Source: Bdellovibrionota bacterium (GTDB lineage: Bacteria > Bdellovibrionota_C > UBA2361 > JAAYZI01). Taken from it: a stretch of DNA of 64,000 bases. The translations under genes were made by a program, and so were the position numbers. The notes beneath the pieces were generated by a model. That model saw only the letters and a list, made by a program, of their open reading frames with translations. It made no database searches and was not told where the DNA came from. Where the stretch lies: NCBI GenBank assembly GCA_050950765.1, contig JBMNIF010000003.1, positions 64,001 through 128,000 on the forward strand, written 5' to 3'. Shown here piece by piece: positions 2,658 through 42,853 of the stretch; the first letter of the stretch is position 1; the number at the start of each line of letters is the position of its first letter.

Positions 2658-4485
2658 CCTGAATTCCCGCGAAATTATACCATACAAACGTGTTTTTAAA
2701 GGTAGCTTTCGAGCGGTATAATCTTACTTTTTCTTAAAAATACTTTTTAGAAAGTCATCTTCTTCAATATTGAAAATTTTCAAAATATCCTTTTGTTTTT
2801 TTGTTAACGGAACCATTAATTTACTGCCATTTTTAGTTTCTATAACTTTAATTTTTTGAAGCTCTTTAATGACATCAGGTATATTAAACTTTTTTTGCCT
2901 TGTATCATTTTTAAGTAAATTAAGAATATAACTTCTAAGTATAAGAGCTAAAAATCCAACAAAAAGTTTTCCTTCTGTGGTTTGAAGATTATGTGTTTTA
3001 AGTCTTCTAAAATCAATTTCATTTTTTAGCTGGAAAAATTGTTTTTCAATTACATCTTTTTGACGATAACGAAAAAGTGCTTCACTCGGATTTGAATCAC
3101 AACCAATACCAATCAAAATTAAGAAGCCACAATTTCTCAAGTATTCATCTATAGCTTCTGATTTTTTTTCATAAGTGAAACCATCTTCATTTATTTTAAT
3201 ATCAAAATATTTCCTATATTTTTTACGATCCAGCAAAGAGTATTTTAATTTTTTCAGTTCTTCTAACTCTTCTTCCATTCTAGAAATTTTCTCGTAAAAT
3301 TGAACTATCTCATATGGCGCCTTTCCCATATTGTAATAAACATAAATCTTTACAGGTTGTCCCATAACAGTATCTATTACAGAACAACCAAAAGTAGAGG
3401 TTCCTTTTATATAATTAGCATCTTGCTTAATAAGTGCAGTGTGATTTTCTAATATTCTTTTAGCGTCATTCCAATATAGTGGCAAAGGACAAAGTAGTCC
3501 AAACTTTTGCCCTTCTTCATTTGCTACTTCCGCTAAATTATCTTGCGTCACAAAACCTTGATCCGTAACAAGGTTAATACGATTATTAAGACTAATAAAT
3601 GGAAAGTCTCTTAAAAGAAAACTAAAATATGTCTTATCTGTAATGCTGCCATTATAAACTTGATAGAATAAAGGAAGCTTCGTTGTAGAGCCGTAGCACA
3701 TACCTATATTTATTTGCGGCAATTTATCCATATCCCTATTATAGCCAAACTCCAATATGCTTATTTTTTTACTATAAGAAGATATGGAAGTTACGTCATA
3801 ATACCAACATTCTTGAGCTAAATATCGCTTCGTCCATTTCTTAAAAAAATTAAGTCTTTTCTCGTAGTCAATACGTTCAAAAAGACGACTTATTTTTTGA
3901 CTTGTTAATTCAGAAATTTCATATGGTAAGACACTATCATCTATCCAACTTGAAGCATGTGATACTACATTTCCATTTGCTAGAATATAAAACGCTAAAG
4001 TTAAAATCTCGTATGTGTCATTTCCAAAAATTGAAAGCAATGTCTTGTCTAACCTTAAATCTTTTACAATCTTATTTAAAACATAAGTAAGACCAAAAGA
4101 TTTATTGCTAATAACATATCTATTAGAATCATCTGGAAACAAATCATAGTAATTTCTATTAGGAATTAATTTCTTACCGCTTTCATCTAGCTTCCCTATA
4201 CCTATTTCATCAAACGTAGGCTCTCCATTTTCACGACGAAAGTTCATCCTGTAATAGATATAAGTAGTCCCATTTTTGTTTTTCTTACGAGCAATTTGCC
4301 TATCTGGTAAGTCAACTTTTTTAGTTATTTTTTTCATAAAAAACCTCCCTAATATGTATAGGGCAATCATACCATACAAACAGGAAATGTCAATATAGAA
4401 AAATATATAACTAACTAAAATATCAATAAAAAATACGGTGGCTTATTTCTGGAATGGAGAAAAGATAAAAATTGCGGAATTTAGG
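2658..4485 (-). mobile_element. IS1634-family insertion sequence (1828 bp)
   Basis: Imperfect TIRs CCTGAATTCCCGC (from 2658) and GCGGAATTTAGG (to 4485; reverse complement CCTAAATTCCGC); 6-bp direct repeat TTACCT at 2652-2657 and 4486-4491; single transposase; markedly AT-rich. Confidence 0.9.
2724..4337 (-). CDS. IS1634-family DDE transposase
   Basis: YYDVTSISSYS, FGYNRD..LPQINIG, LVTDQGF, YRQKDVIEKQFFQLKN, EGKLFVGFLALIL; start MKKITKK after GGGAGG. Confidence 0.9.
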   Translation of the reverse strand: MKKITKKVDLPDRQIARKKNKNGTTYIYYRMNFRRENGEPTFDEIGIGKLDESGKKLIPNRNYYDLFPDDSNRYVISNKSFGLTYVLNKIVKDLRLDKTLLSIFGNDTYEILTLAFYILANGNVVSHASSWIDDSVLPYEISELTSQKISRLFERIDYEKRLNFFKKWTKRYLAQECWYYDVTSISSYSKKISILEFGYNRDMDKLPQINIGMCYGSTTKLPLFYQVYNGSITDKTYFSFLLRDFPFISLNNRINLVTDQGFVTQDNLAEVANEEGQKFGLLCPLPLYWNDAKRILENHTALIKQDANYIKGTSTFGCSVIDTVMGQPVKIYVYYNMGKAPYEIVQFYEKISRMEEELEELKKLKYSLLDRKKYRKYFDIKINEDGFTYEKKSEAIDEYLRNCGFLILIGIGCDSNPSEALFRYRQKDVIEKQFFQLKNEIDFRRLKTHNLQTTEGKLFVGFLALILRSYILNLLKNDTRQKKFNIPDVIKELQKIKVIETKNGSKLMVPLTKKQKDILKIFNIEEDDFLKSIFKKK

Positions 4486-4615
4486 TTACCTCACCAATTC
4501 TTAGTGCATTCACAAAATATAAAGGCTCTTTTTCCTCACCAATTCTTGGCTCATTCACAAAATACCAAGAACCTTTTTCCTCACCAATTCTTAGTGCATT
4601 CGCAAAATATACCAG
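4486..4615. repeat. ~45-bp tandem repeat array, right part (rest of 5th unit plus 2 units)
   Basis: Same CCTCACCAATTCTT...CATTCACAAAATA units resume immediately after the IS right end. Confidence 0.95.
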
Positions 4616-4747
4616 TAAAGATAGTATTAAAGTGCTAAAAAGATAGTGTTTAATCTCTTAAGGAAAATAGAAAAAACCTTCTTAGCGATCCCCCCCTTAG
4701 CGTACTATAAAGATGCTCCCTATATAATTTATTAACCACAGGTAAAA

Positions 4748-12443: not shown

Positions 12444-12980
12444 ATGGACTTTTTTGAAGTTATAGAGAAGAGACACAGTTATCGAGGTAAATTTAAAGAT
12501 ACTCCTGTTAGTAGAGATGACTTAAATAAGATCCTTCAAGCTGGCATCTCTGCCCCCTCCGGTTGTAATGCACAAACAACTACCTTTATCGCCGTAGACG
12601 ATCCGCAAGTGCTTTCAAAGATAAAGGAGGTTGCTGGAGAAAGTACTGCTATAAAAACAGCGCAAGCCGTTATCGCCGTGCTTATAGATACCACACCAAA
12701 AGCAGTATATAACGGGATGTCGTTTCAGGTAGAAGATGCCTCTGCTGCCGTTCAAAATATCTTACTTGCAATTACTGCTTTAGGATATTCTACGGTTTGG
12801 ATTGATGGCTGGTTACGGTGTAATGATAACGGTGCAAAAATCGCTGATATCTTGAAGGTTCCACAAGAAAAAACGGTAAGAGTTCTGCTTCCGATCGGAG
12901 TTGCAGCAGAAACGGTGTCGAGGGCAAAGAAGCGTCCCCTAGCAGAGCGTGTTTCTTATAATGAATATAAGGGCGCTTAA
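12444..12980 (+). CDS. Nitroreductase family protein
   Basis: IEKRHSYR, APSGCNAQ, AVQNILLAITALGYSTVWI; ATG at 12444 after AAGGAG. Confidence 0.9.
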   Translation: MDFFEVIEKRHSYRGKFKDTPVSRDDLNKILQAGISAPSGCNAQTTTFIAVDDPQVLSKIKEVAGESTAIKTAQAVIAVLIDTTPKAVYNGMSFQVEDASAAVQNILLAITALGYSTVWIDGWLRCNDNGAKIADILKVPQEKTVRVLLPIGVAAETVSRAKKRPLAERVSYNEYKGA

Positions 12981-13008
12981 ATATCTGTAAGAGAGCCTAA
13001 TAAGAATT

Positions 13009-13066
13009 AAAAAATGAAAGGCACGGAAGTCTTTCAATTGAGAGTTTAAAAAACCTTCCGTGCTTG
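13009..13066 (-). terminator. Terminator hairpin of array unit 1 (copies at ~13799-13855 and ~14472-14530)
   Basis: Minus strand (G)GCACGGAAG...CTTCCGTGCCTTTCATTTTTT; stem extends with G-U pairs only on the minus strand. Confidence 0.8.
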
Positions 13067-13117
13067 TAATTGCCGAAACCGTTTAGGTTCCGAGAGTAAC
13101 CGCGCGACGTTTACGCA

Positions 13118-13561
13118 TTAGAGCCTTACGAGTGGCAAGACCTCCTCTGGGAAGATTTTGAGGATAGCCTCAATGAAGCTAAGCAGTTCCTGATAACTTG
13201 GTCTCGATTTTGAGTCAGAGTTAGGCAAAGACACACCCTTGATGTGTTTTTTACTCCACACCGCGTCGGGTTCAATGCACTCCTCAATCAGATCCTGATA
13301 AGGCTTCTTCATGGCGTTAATCAAAAACAGCATGAAGTCAGGTTTGTCCCCGTACTCTTTGAGTAACTCCGCTATCGCAGTTGTAAGGTCTTTGTTCATG
13401 AAACATTTACGCAGATCCTCTGCGAGACCATCCGGCAACTCTTCACCAGCTAAAAAGCAACTATGGGCATTCCCAAGACCGTGCTCATTAAGCCATTCGA
13501 AGCAGGCGGGGTTAACAAACACCTCAAGCGGCACCCAAAAGCCTGTTTGAGCAGCACTCAT
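13118..13561 (-). CDS. Hypothetical protein, array unit 1 (147 aa from MSAAQ)
   Basis: AAGGAG RBS before ATG 13561; shares ELP, F..(F/Y)L and (I/C)FP..V motifs with the other two units. Confidence 0.7.
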   Translation of the reverse strand: MSAAQTGFWVPLEVFVNPACFEWLNEHGLGNAHSCFLAGEELPDGLAEDLRKCFMNKDLTTAIAELLKEYGDKPDFMLFLINAMKKPYQDLIEECIEPDAVWSKKHIKGVSLPNSDSKSRPSYQELLSFIEAILKIFPEEVLPLVRL

Positions 13562-13743
13562 CTGGCAATCTCCTTTTCCAACTAAAGCCATCAGACACCA
13601 AAACCTCTCTAAAAAAACAGAGACACAACCGTTATGTCTTGTGAAAGACTTCCTGCCTGAATAAAAAACATTAAAAAATGTTAATTACTCAGGCAAAAAT
13701 TAAATCTTCTACTGTATCAATTGTTAATTAAAGCGATCACCGG

Positions 13744-13772
13744 ATCTTACTGTTTTAAAAAACCTAAAGCAA
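13744..13772 (-). promoter_or_regulatory. Sigma70-type promoter, array unit 1
   Basis: TTGCTT-N17-TAAGAT on the minus strand. Confidence 0.65.
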
Positions 13773-13906
13773 TTTTAAAGGATCTTTAATAAGAATAAAA
13801 AAAATGAAAGGCACGAAAGTCTTTCAATTGAGAGTTTAAAAACCTCCGTGCCTTGTAATTGCCGAAACCGTTTAGGTTTCGAGAGTGACCGCGCGACGTT
13901 TACGCA

Positions 13907-14239
13907 TTAGAGCTTTACGAGTGGCAAGACCTCGTACGGAAAGATCGCGCGAAAAGTGCATTCAACGTTTAAATCGTACTAGCGCTCTTCGATGACGCGA
14001 GACAAAAACTGCGGAAAGTCACGTTCAGTCGCCTCGGGGAATCTTATGCAGAAAATTTCTGCATAGCAAGCGACTAAAACTTTTAGCTCGGCTTGGAGTT
14101 TTTCGTTTGAGAAACAACCACGCAGTCTTGCTACTAAGTCATCCGGCAACTCTTTGCCATTTGAAAAGTGCTCAAAAGCCAGCCGAAGGTCACTTTCGTG
14201 GAGCCTAAAGCAACCACAAGGATCATTTTTCTTTTCCAT
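13907..14239 (-). pseudogene. Array unit 2 ORF interrupted by in-frame TAG (13979-13981)
   Basis: MEKKNDP...VIEER* continues in frame as YDLNVECTFRAIFPYEVLPLVKL*, homologous to the unit 1 C-terminus IFPEEVLPLVRL*. Confidence 0.7.
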
Positions 14240-14417
14240 TGGGCAAACTCCCCATATGAAGTTATCAGGCACAAAAACCTCTCTAAAAAAACAGAGACAC
14301 AACCGTTATGTCTTGTGAAAGACTTCCTGCCTGAATAAAAAACATTAAAAAATGTTAATTACTCAGGCAAAAATTAAATCTTCTACTGTATCAATTGTTA
14401 ATTAAAGCGATCACCGG

Positions 14418-14446
14418 ATTTTACTGTTTAAAAAAACCTAAAGCAA
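14418..14446 (-). promoter_or_regulatory. Sigma70-type promoter, array unit 2
   Basis: TTGCTT-N17-TAAAAT on the minus strand. Confidence 0.7.
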
Positions 14447-14555
14447 TTTTAAAGGAGCTTTAATAAAGATTAAAAAATGAAAGGCACGGAAGTCTTTCAA
14501 TTGAGAGTTTAAAAAACCTTCCGTGCCTTGTAATTGCAGAGAGTGGTTGCGTATC

Positions 14556-14978
14556 TTAGTCGCACAATCTCATCTTTTTCCAGACATTCTCTGGGAAACA
14601 TCTTGCGATGATACCAAGAATATCACGCAGTTCTTCAAGCTGAGCATCTTCAAGCGGCGATAGAACCCTCCCGCATTCAACCAGTGTTGAAGGATCCCTT
14701 ATAAGGAGATCGATCTCCTCAATCGGTTCCTTATAAAGCGTCAGTATCGCCGTAATCAGATAGCGTGAAAATTCGTCTGCGGTCGTTTCGGATGAGTCTT
14801 TACAGAATTGCTTAATGAGGCTACTTACCTCATCAGCGTTACTGTTTCTTGCCAAAGAATTAATCAGCTCTCGAGTGGTAGCTTCCGGTAATTCTTTATT
14901 CCTTTTACAGCACTTAAAAGCTTCGCGTAGAATCCTATCTAGATCGTCTTCCATAGAAGCTCTCATAGAAGCTTTCAT
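14556..14978 (-). CDS. Hypothetical protein, array unit 3 (140 aa from MKASM; alternative in-frame GTG start at 15014)
   Basis: AAGGAG RBS before ATG 14978; KELPE, FSRYL and CFPENV align with units 1 and 2. Confidence 0.7.
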   Translation of the reverse strand: MKASMRASMEDDLDRILREAFKCCKRNKELPEATTRELINSLARNSNADEVSSLIKQFCKDSSETTADEFSRYLITAILTLYKEPIEEIDLLIRDPSTLVECGRVLSPLEDAQLEELRDILGIIARCFPENVWKKMRLCD

Positions 14979-15158
14979 AGAAGTACTCCTTTTCCAGCTG
15001 AAGTTATCAGACACCAAAACCTCTCTAAAAAAACAGAGACATAACCGTTATGTCTTGTGAAAGACTTCCTGCCTGAATAAAAAACATTAAAAATGTTAAT
15101 TACTCAGGCAAAAATTAAATCTTCTACTGTATCAATTGTTAATTAAAGCGATCACCGG

Positions 15159-15187
15159 ATTTTACTGTTTAAAAAAACCTAAAGCAA
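15159..15187 (-). promoter_or_regulatory. Sigma70-type promoter, array unit 3
   Basis: TTGCTT-N17-TAAAAT on the minus strand. Confidence 0.7.
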
Positions 15188-15277
15188 TTTTAAAGGATCT
15201 TTAATAAGAATTAAAAGGCACTCGAGGCTCCTTAAGATCTAGTCTTTATTTTTTAAAAAGATAATTAGTTCAATTGG

Positions 15278-16057
15278 TTAATTCTGATTTAGAAGCCAGA
15301 TCTGTAACATCCCCTTTATCGTAATATCAGGGTCGTAGATTATTTTTTCATCAATATCTTGATTTAGACGTTCCGTAATAACACCCCCCAAGCCTCCCGT
15401 TGATATGATATAAGGTATCTCACCGATCTCTCTTTTAAAACGTTCAATCAAGCCTGCAATCAAGCATTCATAACCTATCATAGTACCCGCCTGCATGGCA
15501 GAAACTGTGTTACGACCGATCACACTATCCGGAAAGACCCTCTCAATTCGTGGCAATTTGGCAGTTTTGCTAACTAAAGCATCTAACGCTATCTCTAAAC
15601 CTGGGGCTATCACACCTCCGATATAACTTCCAGCGCTATCAATGTAATCGATAGTTGTGGCGGTTCCAAAATCTACCACCAAAGCAGGAAGCCCATAAAA
15701 ACACTTAGCGGCAACAGCGTTCGCTATCCTATCAGATCCAACAGCCGCTGGATCGTTCTGCTTAATTAAAACTCCTGTCTTTACCCCTGGACCAACTATT
15801 AGCGGCTCGATGGCGAATTCATCAGCAATTAAAGTGCTAAATAATGTAGTTAATGGTGGAACTACGCTGGCAATAACAGCACCAGCACACTTAAAATCAC
15901 CGTTAAAACGTTTCTGCAAAAGAGAAACGAGGGTCACATTGTATTCATCACGAGTTCTGCGCAGATCAGTACAAAGCCGACATTCACAGATCAATTTATC
16001 CCCTTTAAAACAACCAACGATTATATTTGTATTTCCGATATCAACAGTTAATAACAT
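15278..16057 (-). CDS. coaX: Type III pantothenate kinase
   Basis: LTVDIGNTN, ASVVP, VGSDRIANA, VVDFGTATT, GGVIAPG, STGG. Confidence 0.96.
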   Translation of the reverse strand: MLLTVDIGNTNIIVGCFKGDKLICECRLCTDLRRTRDEYNVTLVSLLQKRFNGDFKCAGAVIASVVPPLTTLFSTLIADEFAIEPLIVGPGVKTGVLIKQNDPAAVGSDRIANAVAAKCFYGLPALVVDFGTATTIDYIDSAGSYIGGVIAPGLEIALDALVSKTAKLPRIERVFPDSVIGRNTVSAMQAGTMIGYECLIAGLIERFKREIGEIPYIISTGGLGGVITERLNQDIDEKIIYDPDITIKGMLQIWLLNQN

Positions 16058-36224: not shown

Positions 36225-36848
36225 ATGAGAAACGTCATGAGAGACTCTAATCCTGAAACATTACAAGCTAGGTACACTCCTCCAACAGATCTTTATAGCC
36301 ATGCTTCGGAAAAAGCTTTTTTATTGTTACGCGAGGCTGAAATAGCAGCAGAAAAGATCATTAGCCACACCAGAAAAGTAGCAGCAAAACAGATCTTTAA
36401 GGCTTACAAACGGAGTAAAGCTATCGGATATAAACGTGGCAAAAAAGAAGTTTTAAATGAGCAAGCTCTACACCTAACTAAGCAACTTTCAGATCTCGCC
36501 TCATATACTTCAACCTTAAAGGAGGACTGTTTTTTAACAACCCTTTCAGTTATTAAAGAGATCTTACAAGTAGAAGTAAGCCAATCTTCAGAATCTATTA
36601 GAGCGCGTCTCTGTAATGCCCTTTCCGCTATTACAGATAAACAACACCTTAAGATCCTTGTAAACCCCAAAGATTTAGCACGATTAAAAACCTCCTCCCC
36701 CCAACTTGAAAGCTTTTTAATTTCTGATGAAAAAGTTGAACTAGGTAACGGTATTATTAAGACTCCTATCGGGAAGATAGAGCTGACTTGGGAAGAACAC
36801 TATGACCTGATCTTTCAGATACTCCTTGCAAGGATTTCAGAACAATAA
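36225..36848 (+). CDS. FliH/SctL-family type III export stator
   Basis: Helical A/G-rich N-terminus, ILVNPKD, DEKVELGNGIIKTPIGKIE; directly upstream of the export ATPase. Confidence 0.75.
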   Translation: MRNVMRDSNPETLQARYTPPTDLYSHASEKAFLLLREAEIAAEKIISHTRKVAAKQIFKAYKRSKAIGYKRGKKEVLNEQALHLTKQLSDLASYTSTLKEDCFLTTLSVIKEILQVEVSQSSESIRARLCNALSAITDKQHLKILVNPKDLARLKTSSPQLESFLISDEKVELGNGIIKTPIGKIELTWEEHYDLIFQILLARISEQ

Positions 36849-36874
36849 GCACCTTATATTGTGGTATAAAAACT

Positions 36875-38224
36875 ATGGAGATTACATACACACCACTAAA
36901 TCAGAGAGTTCCACGTTATTCAGGTGCTAAATCTTTCGGTTGCGTTACAGCGATCGGCGGCCCCTTGATAACAGCAAAGATCCCTTTCTCTGCCGTAGGA
37001 GACCTTTGTAAAATCCCTGTTCAAAACAGATCAATCTCAGCGCAGGTCGTCTCATTTAAAGACAATATAGTTAAGTTAGCACCACTAGACGACCCGCACG
37101 GCATTCATCCAGGTAGTGTCGTTATAAATAGCGGGCTGCCACTTATAATTTATCCCCCCTCTAACCTTTTAGGAAAAATCATTGATGTGATGGGTCAAGA
37201 GTTGCAGTATGGTGCCGAAACAGAACCGTGTAAAAGAGGTACTTGCAACACTTATAAAGGTGTTATTTGCATAGATCGCAAACCACCTGAACCGTTAGCG
37301 CGTCCTCAAATTCAGGAACAGATGTTTTGCGGCGTAAAGTGTATTGATGCTTTTTGTCCGATCGGTTACGGGCAACGGCTTGGTCTTTTTGCTGGTCCAG
37401 GAGTAGGAAAATCCACTCTTTTAGGGATTATCGCTGCGCAGGCACAAGTTGATGTTACTGTAATTGCATTGGTTGGTGAAAGAAGTAGAGAGGTTCCTGA
37501 TTTTATCAATGATGTATTAGGTAGTGGCGGCTTAGAAAAAAGTGTTGTCGTTGTTGCGACAAGTGATGAATGTGCAGCAAGACGCGCCTTAGCTCCACAG
37601 ACAGCCACAGCTATTGCGGAACATTTTAGAGATCAAGGTTTAAATGTTTTACTTTTAGTTGATTCACTAACTAGAACAGCGCGTGCTTTGCGTGAAGTCG
37701 GTTTAGCAGCGGGAGAGATCCCTGTTCGACAAGGTTTTCCCGCTTCTGTTTATGCAGAGCTTCCTAAAATTTTAGAACGTGCAGGAACAGCAGAAAAGGG
37801 ATCGATAACGGGAATTTATACGGTCCTAACGCAAGGTGAACAGGCGCAAGATGCTTTAAGTGAAGAGGTTAAAAGTTTGCTTGATGGACATATTGTGCTA
37901 GATCCAGCCATCGCCGAAAAAGGGATCCTTCCCGCTTTTGATATCACAACCTCCATTTCGAGGTTACAATCAAAACTTTTAACAAAACGTGAGTTAGTTG
38001 AGGTAAGGGCACTTAAGGCAGCGGCAGCTTCGTTAAAAAAGAACAAAGAGATCTTGTTATTCGGTGGCACCCCAGATCCTGAATTAAAAGCTGCCTTAAA
38101 GATCGAAGACGATCTAAATAATTTTATTATTCAATCACCATCAGATCACTATCCTCAAAATATTAAAGAGATCATCTCAAAGATCGCTCGAACTTATACG
38201 CAATCAATTAAAAGCATTCATTGA
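36875..38224 (+). CDS. FliI/SctN (YscN)-family type III export ATPase
   Basis: GQRLGLFAGPGVGKSTLL, ALVGERSREV, LLLVDSLTR, ERAG, GSITGIYTVL, LLDGHIVL. Confidence 0.93.
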   Translation: MEITYTPLNQRVPRYSGAKSFGCVTAIGGPLITAKIPFSAVGDLCKIPVQNRSISAQVVSFKDNIVKLAPLDDPHGIHPGSVVINSGLPLIIYPPSNLLGKIIDVMGQELQYGAETEPCKRGTCNTYKGVICIDRKPPEPLARPQIQEQMFCGVKCIDAFCPIGYGQRLGLFAGPGVGKSTLLGIIAAQAQVDVTVIALVGERSREVPDFINDVLGSGGLEKSVVVVATSDECAARRALAPQTATAIAEHFRDQGLNVLLLVDSLTRTARALREVGLAAGEIPVRQGFPASVYAELPKILERAGTAEKGSITGIYTVLTQGEQAQDALSEEVKSLLDGHIVLDPAIAEKGILPAFDITTSISRLQSKLLTKRELVEVRALKAAAASLKKNKEILLFGGTPDPELKAALKIEDDLNNFIIQSPSDHYPQNIKEIISKIARTYTQSIKSIH

Positions 38225-40740: not shown

Positions 40741-40816
40741 AAGCGAATTTAAAAAATCATCCTAAAAACCTTTAGAACCTTTTAGCTGACAGGTGAGAAG
40801 CACCCACCCTTAAGAC

Positions 40817-41087
40817 GAATTTAGTGCCACCCTTCCCACCAGAACAGGAGGGGCTGATACTAAAAACCGAATCGGTTAGATCTGGACGGGGGTTAAAAAT
40901 TTGGTGCCACCCACTAGGGACAACAGGACGGGCTGTAACTAAAAACCGAATCGGTTAGGTCTTCACGGGGGTTAAAAAACTGGTGCCACCCAACAGTAAG
41001 ACGGGAACGGTTAGATCTGGACGGAGGTTAAAAATTTGGTGCCACCCACTAGGGCTGCTAATAATATTAAGATGTTAGCAAAGAGCT
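40817..41087 (+). repeat. GGTGCCACCC-cored repeat array, left (4 cores)
   Basis: Cores at 40823, 40903, 40982, 41038; shared GGGCTG..ACTAAAAACCGAATCGGTTAG.TCT..ACGG.GGTTAAAAATTT between cores. Confidence 0.93.
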
Positions 41088-41091
41088 AATT

Positions 41092-42159
41092 TTAGTTAAA
41101 AGAAGGGTGGTAACCCCATATATTGTCGTTTTGAATAATCTCTAACTGATCTTGCAAGTCGGAGATCAGTTCAAGCCAATATGGCTGAGAACCAAAATCT
41201 TTAAAGACCCTCTGAAAAGCTGGATCTTCTCTACGGTGTGCAATCCACGCCGCATAGTGAATCATACGTAAAGCCCTTAACGGTTCTATTAACGTTAAAG
41301 TTCGCCGATCAAAATCTCTTAATTCTTCATAACCTTGCAATAGGATCTTCATCTTCTCTTTAGCTTCACAATCTCGACCTTGCACAAAAAGCCAGAGATC
41401 CTGAACGGGAGGAGCGGAAACCGTATCATCAAAATCCACAAAGGAAACACCTTCGTCCCGCCACAGAAGATTTCCGAAGTGAGCATCTCCATGTACCCTT
41501 TGATAACGAGATTCTGAGAAGAGAGGTTCAATTATTGCGCAAATTCTCTCTACAAGGTTAGAAAAAACAGGTTCTAACTCTGGAATTATCACTTTCTGAT
41601 CAATAAGATAGCGCATATTCTGAATGCCGTAGGTCTGAGGAGTGATTTGCAAGCGGTGCTTAAAAGGAGTGGCTGCGCCAACTGTGTGTAGGCGTGCCAT
41701 TAAGCGCCCTATTCTGAGAAGCTGTTCTGCATTTAATTCTGAGGGTGAGCGCCCTCCGACCTTCGGAAAGAGTGCAAAAAAGATCTTCTGATCTTGTAAC
41801 TCCCTTAATGTTTGCCCTTCATACTCTAACGCAGCTACTGCTGGTATATCCGCCTCTTGGAGGTCTTTTAGGAATTTATGTTCTTCTAAGATCTGCTCCC
41901 TACTCCAACGTCCAGGTCTGTAAAATTTAATTATTAAATAACGATCATAAGCGCTTAGAGGATCTGCTTGAGTTTCTATCTCTACCTCATAGACGCGGTT
42001 TTCCATACTATGAAGCGACATGCAGCGTCCCGTACACCTGACACCGTACTCTTCAACTGCATTTAAAATTTTTTCGGGGGTAATTTCGTAAAAATATTGA
42101 GTTTCCACCCCTCCCCAGAGACCCGCTGCTGACCCTTCCCCTCCTAAGCTATCCTGCAT
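41092..42159 (-). CDS. srkA: Stress-response Ser/Thr kinase (SrkA/RdoA/YihE, APH-like)
   Basis: SMENRVY, KFYRPGRWSREQILEEH, HGDAHFGNLLW, VDFDD, VQDLW, DPAFQRVF. Confidence 0.9.
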   Translation of the reverse strand: MQDSLGGEGSAAGLWGGVETQYFYEITPEKILNAVEEYGVRCTGRCMSLHSMENRVYEVEIETQADPLSAYDRYLIIKFYRPGRWSREQILEEHKFLKDLQEADIPAVAALEYEGQTLRELQDQKIFFALFPKVGGRSPSELNAEQLLRIGRLMARLHTVGAATPFKHRLQITPQTYGIQNMRYLIDQKVIIPELEPVFSNLVERICAIIEPLFSESRYQRVHGDAHFGNLLWRDEGVSFVDFDDTVSAPPVQDLWLFVQGRDCEAKEKMKILLQGYEELRDFDRRTLTLIEPLRALRMIHYAAWIAHRREDPAFQRVFKDFGSQPYWLELISDLQDQLEIIQNDNIWGYHPSFN

Positions 42160-42230
42160 AGCGCTACCTTTGTTGTGTAAAACTTCCCCCTAAATAGTAT
42201 CTAAGTTTAAGCGCTCTTTGCAAGTAGAAG

Positions 42231-42658
42231 AAAATTTGGTGCCACCCACTAGAACAGGCAGGAGGGGCTGATACTAAAAAACGAATCGGTTAGGTCTTCA
42301 CGGGGGTTAGAAATTTGGTACCACCCACTAGAACAGGACGGGCTGATACTAAAAACGAATCGGTTAGGTCTGGACGGAGGTTAAAAATTTGGTGCCACCC
42401 TTCAGGGACGGTTGGACGGGCTGCAACTGCAGAACGAATGGGGTAAAATTTGGTGCCACCCTTCAGTGCTAAAAGACTCTAAAATTACGATAGTTAATAA
42501 TATCAATATATTAGCAAAAGCTTAGAATTTGGCAGTTTTGGTGCCACCCACCAGTAAGACGGGATCTGGAGGCTAGGTTTTGGTGCCACCCTTCAGGGAC
42601 GGCTGAACGGGCTGCAACGGCAAAACAGATCGGCTAGAACTGGACGGAGGTTAAATTT
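42231..42658 (+). repeat. GGTGCCACCC-cored repeat array, right (6 cores)
   Basis: Cores at 42238, 42317 (GGTACCACCC), 42391, 42452, 42540, 42582; same orientation and sub-modules as the left array. Confidence 0.93.
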
Positions 42659-42853
42659 TTTAGAAATTTGTAAAAATTACCGCACTTATTGAGAGGAGAG
42701 GGGCATAACGGAGTAAATAGATGTGTTTTTAGTTATTTATTTTTAAGGATTTTTTATTAAGAGCAAAATGCTCTTTCTTGAAATTAACCTTGATTAGGTC
42801 TCTTACCACACTTAGAATCGGCTATATTATTTTTACTAATTATTTAGGACGAT

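Follow-up and report, generated by a model that had tools for sequence, protein, structure and literature searches.

We found that a 64,000-nucleotide (nt) stretch of DNA from a Bdellovibrionota bacterium, hereafter the window (C3:64001-128000 of genome G000, which comprises 2.64 Mb in 5 contigs and is 94% complete), carries an array of tandem paralogous orphan genes at C3:76998-79221 in genome coordinates, each gene enclosed in its own nearly constant non-coding frame. We propose, with a probability of about 0.65, that these frames have been evened out by ordinary homologous recombination, while the proteins between them have likely been diversifying under selection. We observed directly the common ancestry of the genes, a contrast between their synonymous divergence (dS) and the near identity of their frames, frame letters reassorted in another strain, mosaic alleles and an excess of amino-acid changes.

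The array consists of three head-to-tail units followed by a terminal stub, and the positions that the original prediction had given to them were borne out by the sequence. Its features, including the open reading frames (ORFs), are as follows.

12998..13786, minus strand: unit 1, delimited on sequence.
13020..13063, minus strand: terminator-like long hairpin of unit 1, predicted from sequence and folding, then a U-rich tract (13010-13019).
13118..13561, minus strand: ORF 1, encoding an acidic protein of 147 amino acids (aa; P0003) from an orphan family, without a predicted membrane segment.
13562..13737, minus strand: structured leader of unit 1, the roles of its parts being predicted, with a predicted Shine-Dalgarno GGAG 8 nt ahead of the ATG.
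13654-13695, minus strand: long hairpin predicted in the unit 1 leader.
13642-13658, minus strand: predicted 17-nt stretch of the unit 1 leader complementary to the 3′ arm of the terminator.
13612-13639, minus strand: predicted attenuator-like hairpin and U7 in the unit 1 leader.
13744..13772, minus strand: promoter-like TTGCTT-N17-TAAGAT of unit 1, seen in the sequence and under the scan threshold.
13787..14460, minus strand: unit 2, delimited on sequence.
13810..13852, minus strand: terminator-like hairpin of unit 2, from folding.
13907..13978, minus strand: homologous coding remnant of unit 2 past a premature TAG, seen in the sequence.
13979..14239, minus strand: ORF 2, 86 aa (P0008), truncated paralogue, with the same letters in contigs of runs X5 and X7.
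14418..14446, minus strand: promoter-like TTGCTT-N17-TAAAAT of unit 2, seen in the sequence.
14461..15201, minus strand: unit 3, delimited on sequence.
14483..14527, minus strand: terminator-like hairpin of unit 3, from folding.
14556..14978, minus strand: ORF 3, 140 aa (P0005), predicted all-alpha (8 helices), with mosaic alleles in other strains.
15159..15187, minus strand: promoter-like TTGCTT-N17-TAAAAT of unit 3, seen in the sequence.
15202..15221, no strand: boundary stub that repeats the trailer end directly in shortened form; in run X13 its GGCAC part is changed (15218).

Each unit reads on the minus strand in the order first claimed for it, namely TTGCTT-N17-TAAGAT/TAAAAT, a leader of ~175 nt, GGAG-N7/8-ATG, the ORF, and a long hairpin with a U-tract. 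The naming of the outer elements as promoter and terminator is no more than plausible: a consensus scan gave neither, the -35 box matches at 3/6 positions and the hairpin loop is longer than 8 nt, and we infer that both elements are active. ORF starts were taken as the ATG behind the aligned GGAG, which gives the lengths of 147, 86 and 140 aa.

Repeats of 200-300 nt are known to break short-read assemblies, and the array might in principle be a collapsed or chimeric artefact, an explanation that we regard as practically negligible. Contigs from run X5 span every junction at 99%+ identity, with depths of 57/65/49 over the unit bodies against 59 over the flanks, as expected of single-copy DNA, and a depth of 114 over a frame piece common to two units. 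Furthermore, independent JGI contigs encode the proteins of all three units. One letter speaks for the artefact: at position 15088, in a homopolymer of the unit 3 leader, run X9 has one A more, as in units 1 and 2, so the shorter form in the window may reflect either variation between strains or an error of assembly.

The frames are far more alike than the proteins. Leader cores are identical at 192/197, 193/198 and 192/198 positions (97%) versus 23-33% identity between the proteins, in agreement with the prediction of near-constant non-coding flanks, and the 73-nt trailer cores are identical at 63/75, 66/73 and 66/75 positions (84-90%, homopolymer gaps counted). Constancy is not confined to non-coding DNA, as had been thought, since units 1 and 2 have 161 nt at 91% identity that reach into the last codons. 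Nor are the ORFs barely alignable: the paralogues align by blastp (33%, E 2e-9; 23%, E 4e-5; 27%, E 1e-3), and the ORF DNA of the units aligns in codon register. Over local alignments of 62-112 codons, dS, nearly saturated, is 1.09-1.24, the non-synonymous divergence (dN) is 0.58-0.83 and dN/dS is 0.5-0.75; ordinary paralogue pairs in the genome gave dS of 1.3 to saturated (25/278). Because selection on amino acids cannot separate synonymous sites, a dS of ~1.1 beside leaders that differ by 2-3% means that the frames have been either homogenised or held under extreme constraint. On this sequence comparison, the frames appear to be younger than the genes.

Constraint on a functional RNA was one of the explanations first offered, and the frames are indeed structured. 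The leader folds at a z score of -3.7 and the trailer at -4.7 (unit 2 copy), with 0/200 shuffles as good, and the trailers of the units range from -4.2 to -5.0. Under this alternative, the frame would be an attenuator, a riboswitch-like leader or an antitoxin RNA that owes its constancy to purifying selection only, and the ORF would be the partner it regulates, possibly a toxic one. Stem variants that retain pairing as G-U, the hairpin and U7 in the leader upstream of the ribosome-binding site, and structured leaders in most of the other arrays described below are in line with it. We nevertheless consider it unlikely, because constancy in loops, homopolymers and the promoter spacer equals that in the stems, and because letters move between units, which selection alone fails to explain. 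In addition, forced pairing of the leader with the 3′ end is less favourable than local folding by 12.5 kcal/mol, Rfam gave no credible match for the frame, and no antitoxin-type tandem repeat was found in the leader. The frame was not found in 90 other genomes of the order (best outside match 44 nt, E 9e-6), which are partly incomplete and belong to other genera, and searches of JGI metagenomes, viral contigs, phages and plasmids for the frame or the array returned none; 40 relatives searched for the array gave coaX matches only. Three further candidates in the frame were set aside: an alternative GTG start, which agrees with the reading frame in units 2 and 3 and departs from it in unit 1; a 20-codon leader ORF, which has no Shine-Dalgarno sequence; and an 11-mer of the terminator found elsewhere in the genome, where 9/15 occurrences belong to one multi-copy element and the count is near expectation.

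Evidence for movement of letters between units comes from other strains. Runs that hold this stretch derive from anaerobic digesters and bioreactors in 20/22 rows (15 studies), and we aligned short-read contigs from 8/22 runs to the array. Run X13 holds a different strain from G000, and 10/11 of its listed differences in the frames or in the shared 3′ tract are the letter of another G000 unit. The left end of its unit 1 (13004-13005) has unit 3 letters, all three unit 2 letters are present within 13068-13144, and its leaders at 13595 and 15015 both have unit 2 letters. The left-end switch, together with a 77-nt tract identical between paralogues of dS ~1, requires transfer.

The number of units probably varies as well. 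In X13, single-copy pieces have depths of 10.2, 10.4 and 8.1 and a contig of the shared frame one of 19.9, consistent with two units; from these contigs, this strain likely lacks unit 2. In X9, one contig joins 13005 to 14469 and omits units 1 and 2, pointing to a possible one-unit form. Lack of cover is no proof of absence, and this applies to X13, which has no unit 2 contig, and to X9, which has no ORF 1 contig; similarly, the RNA runs X15 and X16 have no contig on the compared parts of the nitroreductase and coaX genes that border the array, which proves nothing. A fourth cassette, considered on account of a loose end at the promoter part in X5 and X7, was rejected, the match being a chance one (23/25 over a 25-nt AT-rich stretch) to a Lentimicrobium record.

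Alleles of unit 3 point to exchange within genes. At its 5′ end, 104 letters are swapped in X13 for 97 others, and the first 33 codons are too unlike to align. The database proteins P0006 and P0007 have a homologous yet different N-terminus at the place where X13 unit 3 is replaced. These two proteins differ at 2 positions in their first 84 residues and at 21 in their last 52 (permutation p 0.0002), and P0005 compared with P0006 shows a break near residue 35 (p 0.0014) and an identical core of 35 residues. Judged from these alignments, the unit 3 alleles are block mosaics with breaks around an invariant core. The idea that exchange runs via conserved flanks thus gains from the reassorted frame letters, the likely variable unit number and the mosaic alleles; its companion, that the payloads are variable genes, finds no support if unrelated cargo is meant, since all six known proteins form one family and the frame is found nowhere else in the genome.

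Differences between strains are concentrated in the coding sequence. We found 27 listed single-nucleotide polymorphisms (SNPs) in 735 nt of X13 ORFs versus 1 to 5 in 521 nt of flank (worst-case p value 0.003). The coding changes in units 1 and 3 comprise 23.5 non-synonymous and 3.5 synonymous ones, a ratio of polymorphism per site (pN/pS) of 1.8 with pS at 2.2%, and non-synonymous to synonymous rate ratios (omega) of 0.2, 0.3 and 0.5 are rejected (p values 7e-7, 7e-5 and 0.005). The pN/pS value lies well above what purifying selection usually leaves. In unit 1, 7/12 residue changes are to K or R. We infer positive rather than relaxed selection from this excess.

Several points weigh against our reading. 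Of the 10 shared letters, some may be inherited from an ancestor instead of being products of conversion. The unit 3 contig of X13 has a depth of 15, 58 letters at the X9 joint can be assigned to either side, and part of unit 2 is present in X9 too; as the strain data are short-read contigs, all unit numbers are estimates. The dS values are based on short, divergent alignments, and P0004, P0006 and P0007 are known as proteins alone, with their flanks unseen. Furthermore, pN/pS is not significantly greater than 1 (p value 0.14 one-sided, 0.24 two-sided), so relaxed selection is compatible with the X13 figures, and unit 2 is decaying. On this last footing, selection would be relaxed or mutation locally raised, the ORFs would drift to decay, and the frames would be constant through conversion of duplicated structured DNA, with nothing adaptive involved. 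The damage to unit 2 and its likely loss in X13, the 5/16 gaps between unit 1 SNPs that are 2 nt or less, and the local direct repeats that a scan of the genome gave at 133 loci speak for such a process. It is nonetheless an improbable explanation given that units 1 and 3 are open after a dS of ~1.1 with a paralogue dN/dS below 1, that the unit 3 fold is confident and its 35-residue core invariant across alleles, and that pS in X13 is only 2.2% in a genome with MutS.

As to machinery, the genome encodes RecA along with MutS. Its three tyrosine recombinases (C2:471421, C2:1062602 and C3:312627) lie far from the array, confirming that no recombinase is adjacent; six HUH Y1-like matches were found in the genome, PF00078 (reverse transcriptase) gave 0 matches, and TIGR02249 (integron integrase) gave 0 matches over the cut-off in this 94% complete genome. 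With no reverse transcriptase, no integron integrase and only distant tyrosine recombinases, the evidence is against a diversity-generating retroelement, an integron or a rAID system and leaves general recombination, for which dependence on RecA would be the natural expectation.

We also weighed a dedicated cassette system, in which a distant recombinase would recognise the structured frame or the 17-nt inverted repeat and move genes as integrons or rAID do. The units are self-contained, a short direct repeat stands at their bounds and their number is likely variable; the 17-nt inverted repeat between leader and trailer scores, against 320 control genes, within the best 2% in units 1 and 3 and the best 10% in unit 2, candidate enzymes exist in the tyrosine recombinases and HUH matches, and similar arrays occur genome-wide. 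This alternative is nevertheless quite improbable, for the payloads are one family, each array has its own frame, the mosaic breakpoints lie within coding sequence, and neither an adjacent recombinase, nor an integron integrase, nor a credible Rfam match was found. A proposed check on this system, that the frame block should recur in many copies with different payloads, went the other way, as the genome holds no second copy of the frame or of any of the proteins.

Collectively, these results favour duplication followed by homologous recombination. The starting point would be the tandem duplication of an orphan gene whose expression frame is self-contained, and the proteins would then have drifted apart under selection. 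As coding homology was lost, frames of 200-280 nt and a few conserved coding patches would be the only good homology left, and RecA-type crossover and conversion would thus be focused on them. Such exchange would homogenise the frames, add or remove whole units (3, likely 2, possibly 1) and let gene segments from other strains enter, while selection on RNA structure likely helps to keep the frame constant.

This scheme resembles several known systems. In the concerted evolution of tandem arrays, unequal crossover and gene conversion make copies share variants and change the number of units, and homology sets the sites of exchange. Usually the coding parts are homogenised, whereas here the non-coding frame is and the coding sequence escapes. 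Integrons also line up small variable genes between structured repeats, with attC ends of the form RYYYAAC...GTTRRRY. In contrast, the array has no integron integrase in its genome and no attC-type ends (trailers inspected, Rfam), its units each have their own predicted promoter and terminator, and its genes are paralogous. Nor does it look like a diversity-generating retroelement: there is no reverse transcriptase and no second copy of any ORF segment in the genome, and variation is not adenine-specific, with 17/27 X13 coding differences involving a coding-strand A and 10 not. In type III toxin-antitoxin systems (ToxIN/CptIN/TenpIN), tandem pseudoknot repeats lie upstream of a terminator and a ToxN/CptN/TenpN toxin. 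The leader has a hairpin and U7 and no such repeats, with no Rfam match, no Pfam match was found for the proteins, and the unit 3 model is all-alpha with no clear fold match (best Z 6.8).

The rAID-1 arrays of Bacteroidales are described as co-directional small fast-evolving genes with repeated intergenic sequence, whose acidic proteins have non-synonymous changes at electrostatic binding surfaces (10.1101/471110; PMC12247911). The present array is similar in layout and in its fast-changing acidic proteins. It differs in that rAID-1 is reported to be preceded by a XerD-like recombinase on the 5′ side and to consist of low-GC genes whose immunity families can be recognised, while the array has no adjacent recombinase, ORFs that are GC-richer than the genome and no Pfam, NCBIfam or PADLOC family.

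A further likeness is to the PeSL cassettes of the T4-type phages RB49 and phi1, in which repeated promoter and stem-loop elements flank orphan ORFs and recombination between PeSLs inserts or deletes self-contained units without a known recombinase (Arbiol et al. 2010, PMC2839356). In the array, promoter-like motifs and stable hairpins are present that fall below the thresholds of the consensus scan. Its frames flank database-orphan ORFs (six members in 5.8 billion proteins), and it has on contigs the X9 joint that omits units 1-2, the X13 frame reassortment and the likely loss of unit 2. There are also differences: PeSLs are ~100 bp, genome-wide and around unrelated ORFans, with mini-circles shown (PMC2839356), while the array frame measures ~270 bp, includes a structured leader of 175 nt, is confined to its locus and surrounds paralogues with mosaic alleles. 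In the contigs of the 8 runs no back-joint was listed, which does not speak against circles. Furthermore, the array is chromosomal, in a housekeeping context and with no match in phage collections, whereas PeSLs reside in T4-type phages. By this comparison, the array works like PeSL cassettes and is no member of them. We found no description of such a design on a cellular chromosome, nor of arrays in this lineage, in the open-access literature searched.

The design is not limited to this locus. About nine further loci in the genome, picked by hand, have small divergent ORFs in conserved non-coding frames:

C1:346573-351781
C2:625265-628886
C2:1025528-1029430
C2:1157288-1160551
C3:566834-568776
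C1:33555-35865
C2:534962-537404
C2:569540-571723
C3:681806-686982

Seven paralogue pairs in these arrays have a dS of 0.4-1.6. The frame is private to each array (cross-locus matches are 30 nt or shorter), as is the protein family (no cross-locus blastp match), and because both differ at each locus, the design is a trait of the genome that arose separately per locus, not one mobile frame. Leaders fold at a z score of -1.5 or lower in 14/17 cases in the other arrays versus a control median of -0.4, and the coding parts of 17 payload genes, chosen by hand, have a median z score of -1.5 versus -0.3 in 66/278 control genes (p value 2e-5). Payload genes across the arrays have a GC content of 0.43-0.49 versus 0.40 for the genome, and N-termini rich in S/T/P/N/G/Q are found in 8/16 payload genes of the other arrays versus 20% of controls, unlike in the present array. 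These loci raise a more speculative idea, which we hold as possible and rather doubtful: a genome-wide, recombinase-free diversification in which private arms-race families at ~10 loci sit in long, structured and stabilising frames that double as recombination sockets. At C1:298869-299526, a 223-nt junction between two genes is present in three tandem copies.

The proteins of the array form one orphan family. The three share the motifs L..A....ELP and FPE and have no catalytic-type residue. Unit 2 is broken by a TAG at codon 87, after which a homologous frame continues to 13907, and it also has a deletion of ~36 codons; read-through of this TAG was rejected, as TAG ends 276/1037 long genes and is read by 0/46 tRNAs. 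Among these 46 tRNAs, listed by ARAGORN on G000, tRNA-Leu(aag) is present and tRNA-Leu(gag) is not, a combination that is uncommon in bacteria. A search of 5.8 billion proteins added only P0004 (67% to unit 1, on a 3828-nt contig), P0006 (79% to unit 3, on a 748-nt contig) and P0007 (73% to unit 3, on a 647-nt contig), giving six members in total. Similarly, a profile search of 1.84 billion representatives found three true members, its remaining hits (P0009-P0011) being repeat-protein noise, and the family profile matched 0/90 other genomes of the order, which are partly incomplete and include none of the same genus. For the array proteins, neither a family nor a toxin, immunity or defence match came from Pfam, NCBIfam, PADLOC or PHROGs; the proteins may still have remote homology to known immunity families.

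The ORF 3 model is all-alpha (predicted local distance difference test, pLDDT, 78.7), while the single-sequence model of the unit 1 protein is unusable (pLDDT 41). Foldseek gave no match for the unit 3 model at E 0.001 in PDB or BFVD, and the ESM Atlas gave no feature match, its best template-modelling (TM) score being 0.50 to a hypothetical protein. KaiA, the best VIA-align match (Z 6.8, root-mean-square deviation 3.7, 83 aligned), lies within the helical-bundle background and was discarded. All six proteins have an isoelectric point (pI) of 4.5-5.4 and no hydrophobic segment, the ORFs have a third-position GC content (GC3) of 0.41-0.54 versus a genome median of 0.35, and the S/T/P/N/G/Q share of their N-termini is 0.08-0.32 versus a control median of 0.28, which is no enrichment. 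The start of ORF 3 carries 2.7 copies of a 12-nt unit (14952-14983), which provide three in-frame ATGs; the number of copies differs among database alleles. Contigs on all three ORFs are present in the RNA runs X15 and X16 (two studies), where DNA carry-over is a possible source.

The absence of conserved catalytic residues and the charge-swapping variation suggest a binding role in biological conflict. We tentatively put at just under even odds that these small acidic soluble helical proteins are conflict-related binding proteins, for instance immunity-like inhibitors of proteins from a phage, a competitor or a host, or decoys of such proteins. Against this role, a pI below 5.5 is also found in 38% of 400 control proteins, and no target, partner or family match speaks for it. 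That the array proteins are secreted effectors is less probable and in our view doubtful: SctN/FliI-like and SctL-like genes lie in the window, yet the proteins have no effector-like N-termini. The genes concerned, at 36225-38224, are an SctL/FliH-like gene and a FliI/YscN-family ATPase (TIGR01026 over the cut-off).

The neighbours of the array are those that had been named for it.

12444..12980, plus strand: left-hand neighbour, a nitroreductase gene that converges on unit 1 (Pfam PF00881, E 1.4e-24).
15278..16057, minus strand: coaX, type III pantothenate kinase, right neighbour (Pfam PF03309, E 1.1e-62).

An empty version of the site was looked for in genome G001, where the two genes are on different contigs; the context of the nitroreductase differs and the coaX contig stops inside the gene. 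Elsewhere in the window, imperfect repeats of ~79 nt built on GGTGCCACCC (40816-41052 and 42198-42671) flank an ORF of 355 aa (41092-42159), the 22-nt core of these clusters occurring in ten copies, and two clusters of 45-nt period (2473-2681 and 4441-4649) stand on either side of a 548-aa gene.

Taken together, these results reverse a usual rule, as coding sequence normally outlasts its flanks after duplication. The process is visible at the level of strains, where frame letters move, units are likely lost and gene halves are swapped, and the present locus newly provides direct strain-level evidence of frame conversion and mosaic alleles. The array is a natural test of how flanking homology directs allele exchange without a dedicated recombinase. 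If the genome-wide idea is true, cells would have their own counterpart of PeSL shuffling in phages, with units and gene halves passing from strain to strain, and selection could have favoured structured messages in this class of genes, in the coding parts as well. If the design is general in the lineage, conserved structured frames would show which genes of this uncultured bacterium, itself endowed with a type III secretion-type ATPase, are under the strongest ecological pressure and offer a route to arms-race genes that homology searches miss.

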